A stretch of DNA of 63,535 bases, counting the filler, from Globobulimina sp. (lineage: Eukaryota), in the NCBI GenBank assembly GCA_003354225.1. It is 27 parts of 27 records of this genome, joined end to end, with 100 filler letters (N's around TTAATTAATTAA, not from the genome) between each part and the next. Parts side by side here need not be neighbours in the genome. Positions count along the whole stretch, not along the records: positions 51,861 to 54,115 come from PIVH01007850.1; 26 more parts are not named here. One strand, written 5' to 3'. The translations under genes and the position numbers were made by a program. Positions 33,027-54,115 of this stretch are shown piece by piece (position 1 is the first letter of the stretch; each line of letters starts with the position of its first letter). Below the pieces are notes generated by a model. That model saw only the letters and a list, made by a program, of their open reading frames with translations, was not told where the DNA came from and ran no database searches.

Positions 33027-34521
33027 TCAAAGATTTAATATCATTTTGATTATTGACACACGTAAACAAAATAATGGTATATTCAATTTTAGAAAAGATA
33101 ACAGATGAAAAATAATGAAAAAGCGTGTATAGTTTCGTACAGAGTTAATTTGTTTATAATCCAAATATATTTTCTGCACAATGTGATTTATGTGCGTACG
33201 CGGTGACAGATCAAAATTCAAATAATAACCGACATATTTCACGTATTTTTCTGGTATCGATCGAGTAATATCATTGATTTTAAGTGACGGCATTGGGATT
33301 TTATATTTATTCTTCATGTGATTTGTATAAAAAATGATATATTTCGTTTTCCGCTCAGATAACATCATTCCATTCAAACGCAACCAATTTACAATATTAT
33401 CGATTGCATATTGCAGTCCATATTCAATATCATATAAAAAGACGCTTTTCAACACAGTCCACATCACCAAATCATCCACATATATATATAGATTTTTAAT
33501 GGTAAATATGACGGAATCACATAATATAAAGGGTCGAGGTACAACATATTAAGAAACGGACTCAAAGGCCTCCCCTGTCCCAATCCTATTAATTGCAACA
33601 TCCAATTGGAACGTATGCCATTTACAACAACAGCACACCAACAATTTATAAATAAGTCATAAATAATACGTATATATTTCATCGGGAAGCCATAATAACG
33701 ATGCAACCGTTGAATAAGAATATGGTACTGCACAGAGGGAAAATCTTGGGCAATATCTGAGAAAATCGCATAAGTTGGCACCTGGTCATTCCATTGTGTC
33801 TTAATATCATTTAATAATAACATAACTATGTCGCGAGTCGATTTACCTTTGATGTTTGTGGTATTATTCGGATGGATTACATCACAATCAATCACAAATT
33901 ATAATCCTTTATGTAACAAACATAACTCATACATTTTTTTTATACAGCCATTAAGGGAGATTTCACGGTAATTATCAATGGAATGGTGGTCACGTTTTGG
34001 TTTCGCGATGGCTGAAATAAAGGTTAATTTATGTATTCGTGGCATATATTCATATACAAAGAACATATTCAAATATTTATATAGGAATTGATGGATATAC
34101 GGTTCAAGATATATTAATAAATGCAGATGAATGCCAATGCCATGATTACATTTTTTGTTCATTATTCGCAAAATATAACGGATCAAATGCAGAGTTATAG
34201 GATTATTAATATTACGCACTGCAGCTACATATTTATAGTCACCTTTAATTAGTCGCGGATTATTTATATGGTTCGCCTCTAAAATATCAGAATCAATCTC
34301 ATTCAGAGTCGCAGTGCAGGGATACATAGAGTCCATCAATGGAATATTACGAAATTGGATACGTTGCATAGGTTTATATGCAATATTTTTAATTGTGCGA
34401 TGACAAAACTTCTCCGCAGACAAAACTTCTCCGCAAAACAATAAAAATCATGTGATATCTGATCTATTCTGACACAGCATTTTGATTTAATTGCATCAAT
34501 CCGTAACTCCAAATCTCTCAA
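33027..34521 (-). pseudogene. Degenerate non-LTR retrotransposon reverse transcriptase
   Basis: Motifs NYREISL, KGKSTRD, FSDIAQDFPSV (DxxKAFD equivalent), GLGQGRPLSPFL, YVDD and KYVGY. Disrupted by a 17-nt tandem duplication (~34405-34438), an in-frame TAA at 33899-33901 and an AT-repeat frameshift at ~33480. Confidence 0.9.
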
Positions 34522-42437: not shown

Positions 42438-43911
42438 ATTGCTTCAACTCAAACATTTCCGATATCAAATTATTTTCAGCCATAAATATAACGTATGTGG
42501 TGATGGTATCTTGCGATATTACATGTTTCCACAATTTATTATCTCCACTTAACATACATTCAAGTAATTGCATAATAACATGCACACAGATCTCAACATC
42601 ATATTTGATAACATCATTATAATAAATCCACACATTTTGATAAATTGTATGCAAAAATTTATCATCAATTCCAAATGTGTACAATCCAGCCACCTCATTC
42701 TCGTTTGTTTGGTATGCTTTTGCTAGAAATTCGACTCTGTTCAATAACAACTTTATACATTCAATATTGCCGCATAACGAACATCCATAAAATATATTTT
42801 TATACAATATTTCTATACTTTCCATAGACGCAATGGAATGCTTTGTTATATGTTCCATTTCCAACGGATTCAATTCTGATAATATTATTTTTAATGATTC
42901 AACATCCATTTCGGAATAGATTGCGTGTTTCGGCCCAATTTCAATTCCATTCTTCTCGTTTTTATACAGTGATATAAATGCATTTGCTACATTTTGTTGT
43001 GGTGTTTGAATATCAATCAATAATAAATCAAACGCAGAGGAACAAAATTGTGAAAATGTCTCTGTCTCCAACTTAGTTTCATGAACCATTAAAGTCAATA
43101 ATTCATTTAAAAAACGTATTATATGACCACTTAAATTCGGATGGTTCATCAAACACGAAATGTATAAATATTCCAATAAGATTAGCAAATATGATTCGTG
43201 GTTGCTTAATTGTTGCAGACATAATGATAAATTCTCATTTATTCCATTCTCATCATTTACGCATTTGCCACAATAATAATTTAAAAACGCTGCTCTGATC
43301 CGATGGAAATCAGTGATTGATAGGGATCGAAAGTGCATGCTATGATTGCACAGTGATAATATTGTACAGTATAATAATTCGCATATGATATCATTGTAAT
43401 TATTTGTGACAATATTATAAAATATTTGTGCGATCGCAGTGCGATTAAATTCATTTTGTCCCATTGATAATCTGCTGAATAATAACTGACATAACTTTAT
43501 TATTTCATCATTATCATTTATGGCAATGTTTGACTTATTTTTGTCAAACAAATTCAGCATAAACTCTTTGTAATTGTTAGTTTTATGATTCTGTACATTG
43601 ACTCTCGAGAAATAAATCGCATTGGAAATGGCCAATGTATTTTCGTTTTGCATCGAAGATATTAAATTAAATAACATTTTATCCATATCTTTCCACTCAA
43701 AAGTGTCCTCATTATTATTGCTGTTAATTTTGAAATTTATATCATTTGAAGGCGGATGCGTATAAAATATTTGTTGGTAGATTCTTTTTCTTAAATTCTG
43801 AGTCGGCGCAGATATTTTTATAACACCACCTTTGGACAAATCATATTTATCCTTCTCCATTATATTCATATCAATCTTTGAAAAGTGGGTCGAATCTCGA
43901 ATATATTTCAA
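42438..43911 (-). CDS. Hypothetical helical (ARM/HEAT-like) eukaryotic protein, internal fragment
   Basis: 490-codon open frame, AT-rich, with Leu/Ile-rich helices. No specific motif. Confidence 0.55.
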
Positions 43912-43939
43912 ATCTTTGTTGATTTGTTTCGAATTCCGC

Positions 43940-44544
43940 GCCTTACCCGATCTGCCAATGAAAACCTTGTCGTGAATACGGATGAAACCTCGATCGGAGA
44001 CGAACCAACGGATGATCGCGATTATGTTGGAAAAGGGGTGGCGGGTCTACTAGATCGGATTTCCTTATTTTCCGGTGAATATGTCGCTTATTGGTCCATC
44101 ATAGCTGTGTTTGTCTACTATTACGAAGTTGTCGTCCGTTACGTCTTTAACTCACCGACCAATTGGGCCCACGAATCCATGTTTCTGATGTTCGGCATGC
44201 AGTATTTGGTGGCCGGAGCCTACGCGATGCTGACAGAGAGTCACGTCCGGGTCGATATTTTCTATGCAAAAATGGCCCCTAAAGGCAAAGCATTTGTTGA
44301 TCTACTGACGTCCGTCTTCTTCTTTATTTTTGCGGGTACCTTGCTTGGAACGAGTTACATATTTTCTGTTGATGCAATTGGTCAGAATGAAGTTTCGTTT
44401 ACGGAATGGGCGGTTCATTACTGGCCCGTGAAATGTGTCATGGTGGTCGGTGCTCTGCTCCTCATATTCCAAGGAATATCCACAGTTATAAAGGATGTGG
44501 GTATTCTGATGGGCTCCTCTGAACATAATGGGGAGGCTGCTTGA
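43940..44544 (+). CDS. dctQ: Bacterial TRAP transporter small permease, 5' truncated
   Basis: YEVVVRYVFNSPTNWAHE, GAYAML.ESHVRVDIFY and WPVK motifs. Intronless and GC-richer than its neighbour. Confidence 0.9.
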
Positions 44545-50870: not shown

Positions 50871-52143
50871 GCGACAAAATAGGAAATGACAAAAAATAAT
50901 GCGTTTTTTCTTACTTCGGCGTACTGGAGTGGCTTACTTACTATAACAGTCGTCATTTTTATAAAATACCTATAATAAGTCCTCTAATGGAACTGGAAAT
51001 AAGTACTCGGTCGGGTGTACTTTCGCAACCTGAACATGTTGCTGAAATTGGTTTCGAACGACTCCCAAGAAAAATCAATGACATGACATGGTTCGGTCCC
51101 CAGGATGAGAAGATTTTTTTAAAATATTTCTTTACAACTTTCATTTTTATATTAAAGATAACACATGTAATTAAAAAAAAACAAGTATGGGTATGAGTTG
51201 AGTTTAATTTTTAGACATTTACAATATTGCTAACATGGTACATATTTTCATAATGTATAACGCACTTAGACACACAACTAAAAAAGTATGAGTACAACAA
51301 ACGGAGCCCTAATAAGACAAAAAAATTCATTTAAAATGGTGTGTTAACAGTGTCTAATGGCGTATTATCGATTAAATGAACAAAATAAAGTAAAAATGTA
51401 CAGGTTTTCAGGTTAAATGTACAATAAGGTGCCATCAGTTGCAAAATTTTCCCATAATCTGTCTTGTTGTTTGTTTTGCCCATTTGTCGATTGTACTTGG
51501 GAAATAAATTGGAGCTTGCTGCTCAACCATGGCCTTGATCTCCGATGTTAAGCTTGCTGCATTACTTTGTTGGCAATGGTCACCCTGCTCAAGTGGCACT
51601 CTGTTGATTGCATTTGTCGCAAAGTGCCGTAAATATTCGACCAGTCTACTCTGGAGCAGTCTATTACGAGGCACAGTGAAAATCATAGTACCTACTGGGG
51701 TCCAACTGACATAGAGTGCTGCATCAGCATTCAGAGCAGTAATCTCCAAAAGGACCTGAANNNNNNNNNNNNNNNNNNNNNNNNNNNNNNNNNNNNNNNN
51801 NNNNTTAATTAATTAANNNNNNNNNNNNNNNNNNNNNNNNNNNNNNNNNNNNNNNNNNNNAGTTTGGAAAGAGAGAATTACCGGGAAACGTTGGGAGAGA
51901 GATGGCACAAAAGAATGTGTTGGTTGAATTGAGTGTCTTGTCAAAGTTAACTACAATCCCAGAACACGAGGTAACGACTCCCAGTATCACGTTGACGCAG
52001 ACACAAGAACAAGAAGAGACAAACCCTAGCAAATAAGCTATTTTGTCGATCATTTTTTTATTCTATTTGCATTGTACTTTATTTACCACTCTTGTTATTT
52101 ACTTTAGAATAGTTGGTTTTCTATTGCAACTCATCGTTAATTG

Positions 52144-53255
52144 ATGCTGTCCAGAGTACGAGTCGCGTTGTATCCCGTAACATTACGAAAATGCACATTT
52201 GCTACATCGTCTTCAGAGAAATGGCTAGATATAGATGGTTTCTCGAGATATCAAGTTTCATCATTTGGAAACGTGAGGAATGTTCAGTCGAATAGATTAT
52301 TTACCATTAATAATGAGAGATTCAAAAAGCTGAACGTGAGGCCAAGTGTGATGCTTATATCAGACAGTGGTAAATGTACGAGTTTGAATCTTAGTCGGAT
52401 GATATTGAAATGTTTTGATCCAAAGGACGATGCAGATGAGTTATATGCACTGCACATTGATGGCAACAAATATAACAACAACTTATCCAATCTACAATGG
52501 AATGACAAAATTCTTCGACACGCTCAGAACACATGGGGTGAGCCTGTAACATTACAAGCGATGACAACAAAGCCAGATATGCATTTTTATTCTGTAACAG
52601 CGTGTTCGAAACATTTCAAACCTGCACCGGCTACACAAACAATATCCAGATGGTGTTATCAGAAGAAAATAAGGCATGGATATAAATTTATGTTTGTGAA
52701 TGAGTCAAAATATTGTCAAAAAATTCTTGATTTAAATGGTGAGAAATGGAAGTTATTTCATGAAACAAAATCAATGAAAATTAAATGTTATATCTCATCA
52801 TTTGGAAGAGCAAAAAAGGTGTATTCAAATGGTAGAGAATCGTTATACAGAACACAGATTGTCAATGGATATCATCAGCTTAACATGAATATTGGTAACC
52901 ATTCAAGACTTGTGTCAAGAATTGTGGCGCTATACTTCGTGGATAATCCACGCAAGCATACGTTTGTTGATCATAAAGATTGCACTCCAACCAACAATCA
53001 TGCATCAAATCTAAGATGGATAAAAGACCTAAAACAAAATGCAAACAATCCAATATCCAAACAGCGATATTCAGAGGCAAAGCAGAGCAAAAAAAAGTTG
53101 AACAATTAACTTTGGATGGATCTGTTATCAACGTATGGGATCGACCAATATGTATTGAGACACTTGGTTACAATCATGGTTATATACTAACTGTTTGTAA
53201 TGGCAGAAGAAAGACGGCATACGGTTTCAAATGGCGTTTTCATTCATCACAATAA
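52144..53255 (+). CDS. Tandem (NUMOD4-HNH-NUMOD1)x2 homing-endonuclease-like protein; -1 frame change at A8 run 53089-53096
   Basis: NUMOD4 motifs WLDIDGFSRYQVSSFGNVRN and EKWK...CYISSFGR. HNH motifs LHIDGNKYNNNLSNLQW and VSRIVALYFVDNP...VDHKD..PTNNHASNLRW. NUMOD1 motifs FYSVTACS..ISRWC..HGYKF and VEQLTLDG...VCNGRRKTAYGFKWRF. Confidence 0.88.
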
Positions 53256-53426
53256 CACGTTTCCATTCATGCGCATTTGTTGCTATTTTTTGGAAGCTAG
53301 TAAAACGACTAAAACCCCGTTTCAATTGAATTCAATTAAAAGTTCATGTATAAAAAAAAGGTGAAAATGCCTTCGGTTTAAAAGTTAAAAATACACTATA
53401 ACACAAAAATAAAATATTATTATTGT

Positions 53427-54115
53427 TTAATAATCGGAACTCGACCAATCCGAACCAGTCTCACTATCACTATCGTCCGCCATAAACTGTCTCCGATTCA
53501 ATATCGCAAAGATTGTATTATCCACACTTTCCTCTTTTTTTACATTGATCTTATCCGCGGCCACTTTCTTCAATCCAGTTTGTCCTTTTTTTTTCAACGC
53601 AGCCAGCAACATATCTCTTTTCTCCATTTTCGGCTCTCTCTTCACCACAGTCGTCTTTTTCAACTGTATCCCACTGCGAATGCCTGCCATCAACGCATTA
53701 GGCTTCGATGCATTCGCAGCTTTGGGTGATGCCGCTTTCTGTACAGCCACTGGCCGCCTATACGCACCCGACGACTCTGCTCGCTGTGCACTCAACGCCG
53801 CCATCTCAGCCCCCGTCAATTTCTTCTTCTGCACTGGTACGCGGGGTACGGGCGGTGGTCCACTGGCAATGGGCACTGGCGGTGGTCCTCCACCTCCATT
53901 CGCGACGCCATGGCCAGGTACTGGCACAGGCGGAGGCCCTCCACCCCCACCCACTGCATTTGGCACCGGCGGCGGTCCACACCCTGCCACAGTCACGCCA
54001 CCTGGCTTTGCAACAGGCACTGGCGGAGGGCCTCCCACTGCGACACCAGGCACCGGCGGGGGTCCACCACCAGAGCCACCCGGATGTTTCTCCTCCATCG
54101 CAGCTGCAGCTATCA
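53427..54115 (-). CDS. WASP/WAVE-family actin nucleation-promoting factor C-terminus (polyproline, 2x WH2, C, A)
   Basis: GPPPVP repeats; WH2 motifs ALMAGIRSGIQLKKT and MLLAALKKKGQTGLKKV; central IFAILNRRQFM; acidic DDSDSETGSDW. Confidence 0.85.

Follow-up and report, generated by a model that had tools for sequence, protein, structure and literature searches.

The stretch of DNA analysed here (the window; 63,535 bases from Globobulimina sp., assembly GCA_003354225.1) carries at positions 52144-53255, within the part taken from record PIVH01007850.1, a gene for a double HNH nuclease with a short basic extension at its N-terminus. Comparison with related proteins leaves little doubt that tandem HNH nucleases of the viral type form a real family in foraminiferal nuclear genomes, to which this gene belongs, with a conserved N-terminal extension of single origin. 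As an explanation of the whole, we lean slightly towards the view that a nuclease family of the giant-virus type was captured by foraminifera, acquired a mitochondrial presequence and then expanded. The enzyme type is a known one, and it is the genetic setting that is new: a nuclear multigene family with a probable organelle presequence.

A tandem I-HmuI-like nuclease and its relatives

The protein consists of two tandem units resembling I-HmuI, each made up of a NUMOD4 domain, an HNH motif and a predicted helix-turn-helix (HTH) domain (Table 1). Two separate regions of the sequence matched Pfam HNH_3 (PF13392; E 3e-7, with 30.3 bits where the cut-off is 24.8), and HNH endonuclease families of PHROGs also matched in two stretches, the best at 1.4e-35. 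The arrangement characteristic of I-HmuI-type HNH endonucleases, with NUMOD4 N-terminal to the HNH motif and an H-N-N centre, is present. A profile of 38 family members found a single sequence match in the PDB, I-HmuI (1U3E; E 2e-24), extending over the NUMOD4 strand region, the HNH motif and the HTH up to I-HmuI residue 156, and the HNH motif of unit 2 aligns to the I-HmuI motif VDHKDGNKDNN..NLRWV. In the NUMOD4-like domain of unit 2, residues E200, W202, K203, Y216-S219, G221, R222 and K224 are invariant in alignment A2 of the family. No Pfam match was found for the HTH of unit 1. The last domain, which lies in a shifted frame in the assembled sequence (see below), matched PF22083 (I-HmuI_NUMOD-like) with E 0.0011 and 19 bits, under the cut-off of 27. 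Module coordinates were set by hand, and the boundaries of the HTH domains and of the second NUMOD4 domain are approximate.

The same architecture was recovered at the level of structure. An AlphaFold2 (AF2) model of the homologue P0003, with a mean predicted local distance difference test score (pLDDT) of 90 and a predicted template modelling score (pTM) of 0.60, contains the unit twice, each time as a beta-sheet domain, an HNH and a beta-beta-alpha-alpha-beta HTH. The linker at residues 127-133 is of low confidence, and residues 1-21 are disordered, with pLDDT below 50. When this model was submitted to Foldseek, 1U3E was the sole significant match in the PDB (E 8.6e-10). A structural search of BFVD yielded full-length matches to HNH proteins of giant viruses, the best being Iridovirus LCIVAC01 (6e-29), followed by Marseillevirus LCMAC101, Klosneuvirus, Pithovirus LCPAC and a Mimivirus intron-encoded HNH, and the neighbours of the family in the ESM Atlas are Nucleocytoviricota clusters. 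A preliminary description of the sequence had proposed a (NUMOD4-HNH-NUMOD1)x2 protein of the phage and giant-virus kind. The sequence and structure matches bear out the enzyme type, and the double architecture proves right in substance.

Both nuclease centres are conserved. In the window protein, H104, N111, N112 and N116 of unit 1 and D276, H277, N284, N285 and N289 of unit 2 are all invariant in A2. Of the 38 sequences in a second alignment, A3, 36 retain the general-base histidine of unit 1 and 34 that of unit 2; the asparagine positions are kept in 33-38 of 38, and both N118 (P0003 numbering) and the aspartate of unit 2 are present in all 38. Five proteins (P0019, P0068, P0042, P0049 and P0073) have lost the histidine of one HNH centre, and their sequences hint that such members may be single-nickase or binding-only derivatives. 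One subfamily from Bolivina and Nonionella (P0025, P0027, P0167 and P0255; 448-454 aa) carries an extra, third C-terminal HTH repeat after unit 2.

The gene is free-standing and lies in a nuclear contig of a foraminiferan or of a very close relative, and the family to which it belongs is large and specific to this lineage. Its eight closest proteins in EukProt (45-57% identity, 70-94% coverage) are from the rotaliid foraminifera Bolivina argentea and Nonionella stella. Exact look-ups of 29 proteins identified 20 by name, ten from each of these two species, the other nine being unnamed ENA, Logan or JGI records. When 1.84 billion representatives were searched with a profile, 93,878 matches had E of 0.001 or less, of which 339 reached 1e-30; another profile yielded 1304 matches with E no higher than 1e-20. 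Outside foraminifera, the named proteins closest to the family are those of giant viruses (Klosneuvirus KNV1, Mimivirus LCMiAC01 and Fadolivirus), with 26-36% identity. Scanning viral sequences with A2 produced 119 relatives, at most about 38% identical over one unit and 26% over both; the three rows with higher values (50% in two of them, 46% in the third) reflect short best segments, with E of 5e-5 to 1e-4. The corresponding metagenome scan produced two distant loci with 27-31% identity. A search of the open-access literature on HNH proteins in foraminifera, including Reticulomyxa, on NUMOD4 in connection with mitochondria and on nuclear-encoded HNH endonucleases targeted to mitochondria found no report of this family.

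Ancestry and composition of the N-terminal extension

The start codon is the ATG at 52144, as the preliminary description had it, and is fixed by an in-frame TAA directly upstream (52138-52140). The next in-frame methionine is residue 70, within NUMOD4, and the N-terminal extension is therefore obligatorily translated. A contig from organism C is colinear with the window back to 52120. The 24 residues of the extension are as first quoted: they contain three arginines, one lysine and neither aspartate nor glutamate, and end right before the Pfam NUMOD4 match at residue 25. This tail of the window protein thus has the make-up expected of a presequence, being N-terminal, net positive and acid-free.

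Recurrence of the extension was examined in 255 collected proteins, 154 of which start with methionine and have a NUMOD4-like motif no more than 90 residues from the start. Fifty-five of these 154 form an extension class, with at least 18 residues before NUMOD4 and a net basic charge; their extensions are 18-63 aa long (median 31) and contain on average 0.45 acidic residues outside the last four positions. A further 86 proteins have short leaders of at most 14 residues, mostly acidic (MEEI.. or MEEYTPIEE..), and the remaining 13 were classed as other. Viral and other relatives lack an extension, starting 3-14 residues before NUMOD4. Trees were then built from 102 proteins of 295-480 aa from which all residues before NUMOD4 had been removed; shorter, longer, non-Met and motif-less proteins were excluded. 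All 48 extension-bearing rows, including the window protein, fell into one clade of 52 in the FastTree analysis (SH-like support 96) and into one clade of 51 with IQ-TREE under LG+G4 (SH-aLRT 80). Since the alignment was free of the extension itself, the grouping of 48 out of 48 rows indicates that the extension arose essentially once. The check for recurrence of the presequence among paralogues, suggested in the preliminary description, thus went in its favour.

The label is not perfectly distributed on the tree. Across the trees, four rows without extension (P0080, P0058, P0094 and P0047) lie basal to the clade or inside it, and the label requires at least three changes, for example one gain together with two losses or miscalled starts. 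The Bolivina protein P0238, scored as extension-less, is a 5′-truncated form that starts inside an extension. Bolivina and Nonionella members are spread over several subclades. The expansion of the family therefore predates the split between Bolivina and Nonionella.

The amino acid composition of the extensions differs from that of the mature part. Arginine makes up 10.3% and lysine 4.2% of the extensions, against 6.8% and 9.3% of the mature part, a reversed ratio; serine amounts to 13.1% against 7.7%, and leucine and phenylalanine are enriched too. A signal peptide or membrane anchor was considered and ruled out, because the longest hydrophobic run in the extensions is no more than five residues. 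For nine of ten pairs of paralogues, conservation is lower in the extension than in the mature part, yet the make-up of the extension is retained; in P0003 and P0006, for example, the two parts are 42% and 79% identical. The site recognised by the matrix processing peptidase has Arg at -2 or -3, an aromatic residue at -1 and Ser, Ala or Thr at +1. A motif of our own definition, R-x(1,2)-[FY]-x(0,2)-[ST], modelled on the R-2/R-3 rule, was found within 16 aa of NUMOD4 in 24 of 56 extensions, compared with 6.7 on average, and never more than 16, when the sequences were shuffled 1000 times. The R-x-F/Y-(C/S)-S/T motif in which the extension often ends is a candidate processing-peptidase site. From these properties we predict, with somewhat more than even confidence, that the extension is a mitochondrial presequence.

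Reading frame, copies of the gene and contig context

The interval 52144-53255 is 1112 nt long, not divisible by three, and is not the single gene frame that it had been taken for. From the ATG at 52144, frame A runs for 321 codons to a TAA stop at 53107-53109, and the last module is encoded by 52 codons in another frame, up to the TAA at 53253-53255; the preliminary description had bridged this break silently. Homologues continue across the break uninterrupted, as SEAKQxKxKVEQLxLDG in the alignment, which requires nine A's compared with the eight of the window. One contig of sequencing run X1 carries the extra A behind 53088, at a depth of 6.6 of 36, and this restores the frame. Run X1 is probably the sample behind the window assembly and is hence not independent. 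The demand of the homologues for nine A's, together with the 9-A contig, therefore identifies the break as an ambiguity of homopolymer length, and the 1-nt frameshift of the window copy most probably goes back to an error in sequencing or assembly, or else represents one allele. With nine A's this copy would be intact, with eight it would be frameshifted; a real frameshift would cost the protein just its last DNA-binding domain.

Other copies and alleles were seen in the sequencing runs. Runs X6 and X7, from organism C and possibly derived from RNA, contain a copy whose pieces are mostly 90-99% alike, at a depth of 3-5. The HNH gene had no cover in run X5, and in X6/X7 its cover ends by 53087; these blanks carry no weight. 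In the best-supported rows, the window and the organism-C copy differ in at least 23 codons, with 15 nonsynonymous differences over about 616 sites and eight synonymous ones over about 158 sites, and no stop codons among them. The insertions and deletions seen in related copies and alleles preserve the frame: there is a deletion of 6 nt within the extension (at 52154), a change of 6 nt at 52291, and one of 3 nt net at 52628-52636. The gene is thus under moderate purifying selection, neither dead nor tightly conserved. Over 52242-52376, run X1 contains a second version of the gene at a depth of 6.8, against 15.6 for the window version, with eight substitutions and, behind 52291, a 6-nt insertion that keeps the frame. 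The organism-C copy has six of the listed substitutions as well. This version is a second allele or haplotype, or a recent paralogue, in the source sample.

Some X1 and X7 contigs match the window over only 40 nt (52776-52815) and then run into unrelated sequence on both sides, with loose ends of 69-255 nt, and the X1 contigs listed for the HNH gene, which are the longest records, leave 52929-53088 unspanned. At the sequence level, the short matches and the gap point to further paralogues with common conserved motifs. Two joints in X1 contigs, 52926->52982 and 52930->53068, which skip 55 and 137 nt, were considered as possible splicing and rejected; they have no intron-like ends and short sides, and are read as paralogue tangles.

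The window is a concatenation of 27 unrelated contigs of 2255-2259 bp each, sorted by length and joined by N44-TTAATTAATTAA-N44 linkers. Only the contig at 51861-54115 is therefore genuine context for the HNH gene, and findings that rest on adjacency across a linker are invalid. The description of the gene as lying between eukaryotic sequences fails for the window and holds only for the neighbours on this contig. There, the reported convergence with a WASP-family gene was confirmed. The neighbour lies on the minus strand, tail-to-tail with the HNH gene across a gap of 171 bp, and encodes a protein with Pro-rich repeats, a WH2 motif (about 53634-53699; Pfam E 2.5e-6) and an acidic C-terminus that contains Trp, which together make a VCA tail of the WASP/WAVE type. 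Its homologues are 44-68% identical and 473-521 aa long, and one of them belongs to Ammonia sp. (MMETSP1384), also a foraminiferan. Over 53089-53688, one X1 contig matches the window with zero differences, so that the last domain of the HNH gene is joined to the WH2/VCA neighbour.

An Rfam scan of contig 51861-54115 gave no match at E up to 0.1, and the idea that the gene is an open reading frame (ORF) of a group I intron was rejected on this ground. A repeat scan of the contig revealed no flanking direct or inverted repeats of note. As the 2.26-kb contig shows no intron, intein or mobility mark, the gene does not qualify as a homing endonuclease gene in the strict sense.

In runs X5 and X6/X7, cover of the WH2/VCA gene in its 3′ part (53380-54115) reached a summed depth of hundreds to several thousand, beside a depth of only 0-7 for the HNH gene in the same runs. 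This deep cover consists of contigs of 60-117 nt that end in Illumina adapter letters, those from X5 (organism B) being essentially identical to the window and those from X6/X7 belonging to organism C. High expression, a short-insert library or Pro-rich repeats drawing in other loci could each cause the excess. On the other 26 contigs of the window, tblastn with the HNH protein detected no further copy (best E 2.3). Domains encoded there are ordinary eukaryotic ones, including kinase, SAM/START, ABC transporter, WD40 and reverse transcriptase. An ORF at 43882-44541 (plus strand) contains a DctQ domain (TRAP transporter small permease; E 1.7e-21); as this is a bacterial-type gene, the contig around it may derive from a symbiont or an assembly contaminant. 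An ORF at 33467-33898 (minus strand) contains a reverse-transcriptase fragment (RVT_1; E 1.6e-6), which marks a retroelement remnant on that contig.

Table 1. Features of contig 51861-54115, in window positions
Feature	Position	Strand	Remarks
Divergent upstream ORF start, candidate	51861..52053	-	ATG at 52053; mechanical ORF; truncated by contig end; 90 bp from HNH start codon
N-terminal extension, residues 1-24, candidate mitochondrial presequence	52144..52215	+	3 R, 1 K, no D/E before residue 25
NUMOD4 motif, unit 1, residues 25-62	52216..52329	+	Pfam PF07463 E 8.2e-9, 36 bits vs cut-off 23.4; aligns with I-HmuI residues 2-33
HNH motif, unit 1, residues 100-119 (H104, D106, N111, N112, N116, W119)	52441..52500	+	Columns invariant in A2
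HTH, unit 1, about residues 135-186	52546..52701	+	AF2 model of P0003: beta-beta-alpha-alpha-beta at aligned 139-186
NUMOD4-like beta domain, unit 2, about residues 200-232	52741..52839	+	Second PHROG HNH stretch; AF2 strands 204-236
HNH motif, unit 2, residues 269-298 (D276, H277, D279, N284, N285, N289, W292)	52948..53037	+	Best Pfam HNH_3 stretch
A8 homopolymer, site of frame break	53089..53096	+	Homologues need one extra A; X1 variant contig has it
C-terminal HTH (NUMOD1/I-HmuI NUMOD-like), unit 2, shifted frame	53097..53255	+	Aligns to C-termini of P0001, P0003, P0004 and P0007
Neighbouring WASP/WAVE-like gene, 3′ part	53427..54115	-	Truncated by contig end; ORF 53427-54098 continues to contig end

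Proposed function, alternatives and related systems

If the extension is a presequence, the history and activity of the family might be as follows. The ancestor would have been a free-standing tandem HNH endonuclease of the giant-virus kind, with two I-HmuI-like units. After capture, an N-terminal extension of 20-45 aa with the make-up of a matrix presequence would have been gained, essentially once, and the family would later have diversified into many paralogues. The precursor would be imported into the mitochondrion, and the presequence removed near the R-x-F/Y-(C/S)-S/T motif, a few residues ahead of NUMOD4. I-HmuI binds a long asymmetric DNA site and nicks one strand; its mode of DNA binding is described in PMC10319021. 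The mature protein may likewise bind a long asymmetric site, of some tens of base pairs, by means of its two HTH and two NUMOD4 domains. The two HNH centres would then nick the DNA, possibly one strand each, to give a staggered double-strand break in mitochondrial DNA (mtDNA), and the diversity of paralogues would correspond to many target sites. Possible roles are the initiation of recombination-dependent mtDNA replication or repair, or the elimination of mtDNA variants or selfish elements. We infer the import into the mitochondrion, the cleavage site, the mode of DNA cutting and the biological role. More tentatively still, dozens of diverged paralogues per species might form a nuclear-encoded set of imported, sequence-specific cutters that drive or police recombination, rearrangement and heteroplasmy of the fast-evolving mtDNA of foraminifera, a role that we put forward as a conjecture with the odds somewhat against it.

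Several observations weigh against capture followed by mitochondrial retargeting. In the IQ-TREE analysis, the extension-less proteins P0047, P0058 and P0094 fall within the extension clade. The tail of the window protein (..LRKCTFATSSS) has its R at -5 and its K at -4 from the Phe and is outside the 24 motif matches, the number of which is inflated by common ancestry. A helical-moment test of low power (12 aa, 100 degrees) revealed no excess over the extensions' own shuffles, with a mean z of 0.05, values above zero in 34 of 56 and a z of -1.36 for the window tail. As the extension class was defined by charge, its depletion in Asp and Glu and its net charge are circular; four features do not depend on the class definition, namely the ratio of R to K, the excess of Ser, the motif and the structure of the clade. 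The window copy is frameshifted as assembled, and the 9-A form is the minority in X1 (6.6 of 36 depth). The rough ratio of nonsynonymous to synonymous change (dN/dS) of about 0.48, calculated from a partial list of the best-supported rows, amounts to only moderate constraint. The passages searched in the published foraminiferal mitogenome papers make no mention of HNH genes or targets, introns or homing sites; one such paper describes a GIY-YIG gene and many repeats in a planktonic species.

The neutral result of the amphipathicity test would suit a host family unconnected with mitochondria, in which the extension is another kind of signal or a flexible leader and the proteins are selfish endonucleases of the nucleus or cytoplasm, or a defence against giant viruses. 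The paralogues are highly diverged (25-58% identical), as in an arms race or selfish spread, and their nearest relatives are giant-virus genes. The breaking of the assembly graphs at the conserved HNH-2 region and the contigs confined to 52776-52815 also speak for many copies in the source sample. We nevertheless consider such a family rather unlikely. A basic, Arg-over-Lys, Ser-rich and acid-poor extension of 20-45 aa has been retained in 48 diverged members, which is the signature of a cleaved organelle presequence: the sequence drifts while the composition stays, and the end carries an R-x-F/Y-S/T-like motif. The extension has no K/R cluster and is hence not a nuclear localization signal, its hydrophobic runs are too short for a signal peptide, and the contig has neither repeats nor an intron that would delimit a mobile unit. 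A Ser/Thr-rich, acid-poor make-up would suit plastid transit peptides too, and Nonionella stella is reported to be kleptoplastidic (PMC11736642), so that another compartment with similar signals, for instance diatom kleptoplasts in kleptoplastic species, or dual targeting might be envisaged. Against this, an arginine content of 10% is, like the R-x-F/Y motif, more in line with mitochondrial processing, and the single origin of the extension lies at the base of a family common to at least three foraminiferal lineages. Foraminifera are not known to have a permanent plastid or an import route into stolen plastids. Targeting to such a compartment therefore seems very improbable.

The gene might also be a viral remnant, that is, a giant-virus insertion or part of a contaminating virus, the window copy being a decaying pseudogene with a meaningless tail. 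This would be in keeping with the frameshift at the A8 run, with the double-unit architecture typical of Nucleocytoviricota and with the rough dN/dS given above; in addition, the named homologues come from apparently field-collected transcriptomes or metatranscriptomes, in which viral transcripts can occur. It is made improbable by the position and history of the gene. Viral and other relatives are only 25-38% identical and have no extension, the extension-bearing proteins form a clade of their own, and the HNH gene is on one contig with a conserved foraminiferal actin-regulator gene. Moreover, the 9-A variant restores the frame, the other insertions and deletions are in-frame, the listed differences create no stops, and the catalytic residues are retained across the family.

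Among known systems, I-HmuI of Bacillus phage SPO1 (1U3E) shares with the window protein the NUMOD4 beta domain, the VDHxDGNxxNN..NLRW motif and, as modelled, the C-terminal HTH, one I-HmuI corresponding to each half of the window protein. The window protein differs in having two units per chain and an N-terminal extension, and its gene is free-standing in a nuclear contig, with no intron. By contrast, I-HmuI is reported to be a single unit, encoded in a phage group I intron, that nicks one strand (Shen et al. 2004, as cited in PMC10319021). The NUMOD4-HNH proteins of giant viruses (KNV1, LCMiAC01, Fadolivirus, LCIVAC01, LCMAC101 and the EsV-1-119 family) likewise have double or multiple units, and their full-length structural matches span 350-380 columns, with E down to 6e-29. 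They differ from the foraminiferal proteins in their short acidic leaders (3-14 residues), their identity of 25-36% and their position outside the extension clade.

Judged by analogy, the nearest functional counterparts of the family are the DB-sCTPs of Paulinella chromatophora. According to PMC10319021, these are 161 nuclear-encoded, chromatophore-targeted proteins that consist of a stand-alone I-HmuI/I-TevI HTH, of beta-beta-alpha-alpha-beta topology, and bind organelle DNA; the authors report no intact HNH or GIY-YIG endonuclease in Paulinella. In our Foldseek search the DB-sCTP structure 8B6E matched the HTH of the P0003 model (rank 20, prob 0.99, 50 columns, root mean square deviation 2.7). 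Both are expanded rhizarian nuclear families built from modules of homing endonucleases and sent to a DNA-containing organelle, the targeting being predicted in the foraminiferal case. The DB-sCTPs, however, contain only the HTH (about 50-60 aa) and no nuclease, go to the chromatophore and use another import route, whereas the foraminiferal family keeps both nuclease centres.

Nucleases of selfish elements have been captured by the nucleus elsewhere, as in yeast HO and the plant LAGLIDADG or maturase proteins OTP51 and nMATs, and some of these have been retargeted to organelles. They differ from the present family in being LAGLIDADG proteins, or reverse transcriptase-maturases with an En domain, and in occurring as single genes or small families; the plant proteins act in RNA splicing, and in them DNA cleavage has mostly been lost. 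EndoG/CPS-6 is a nuclear-encoded, presequence-bearing nuclease of the His-Me finger (beta-beta-alpha-Me) type that acts on mtDNA. It differs in belonging to a family of non-specific DNA/RNA endonucleases, with no NUMOD4 or HTH; it is encoded by one conserved gene and cuts without sequence specificity.

Phages, giant viruses and organelle introns are the known sources of intact HNH endonucleases of the homing type; large nuclear families of such enzymes with organelle presequences are not known. The family is a record of genes that passed from giant viruses to foraminifera and were then kept over a long time. If the mitochondrial reading is correct, Rhizaria would have recruited homing-endonuclease modules for organelle genome control a second time, independently of the Paulinella DB-sCTPs, and the family would be a counterpart at the DNA level of the PPR and OPR expansions. 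The members of the family would also be natural tandem nickases with built-in mitochondrial targeting, which is relevant to the manipulation of mtDNA. Should import prove true, foraminifera would possess a nuclear-encoded repertoire of site-specific nucleases that act on mtDNA, and this would bear on the upkeep, recombination and purging of their divergent, reduced mitochondrial genomes.

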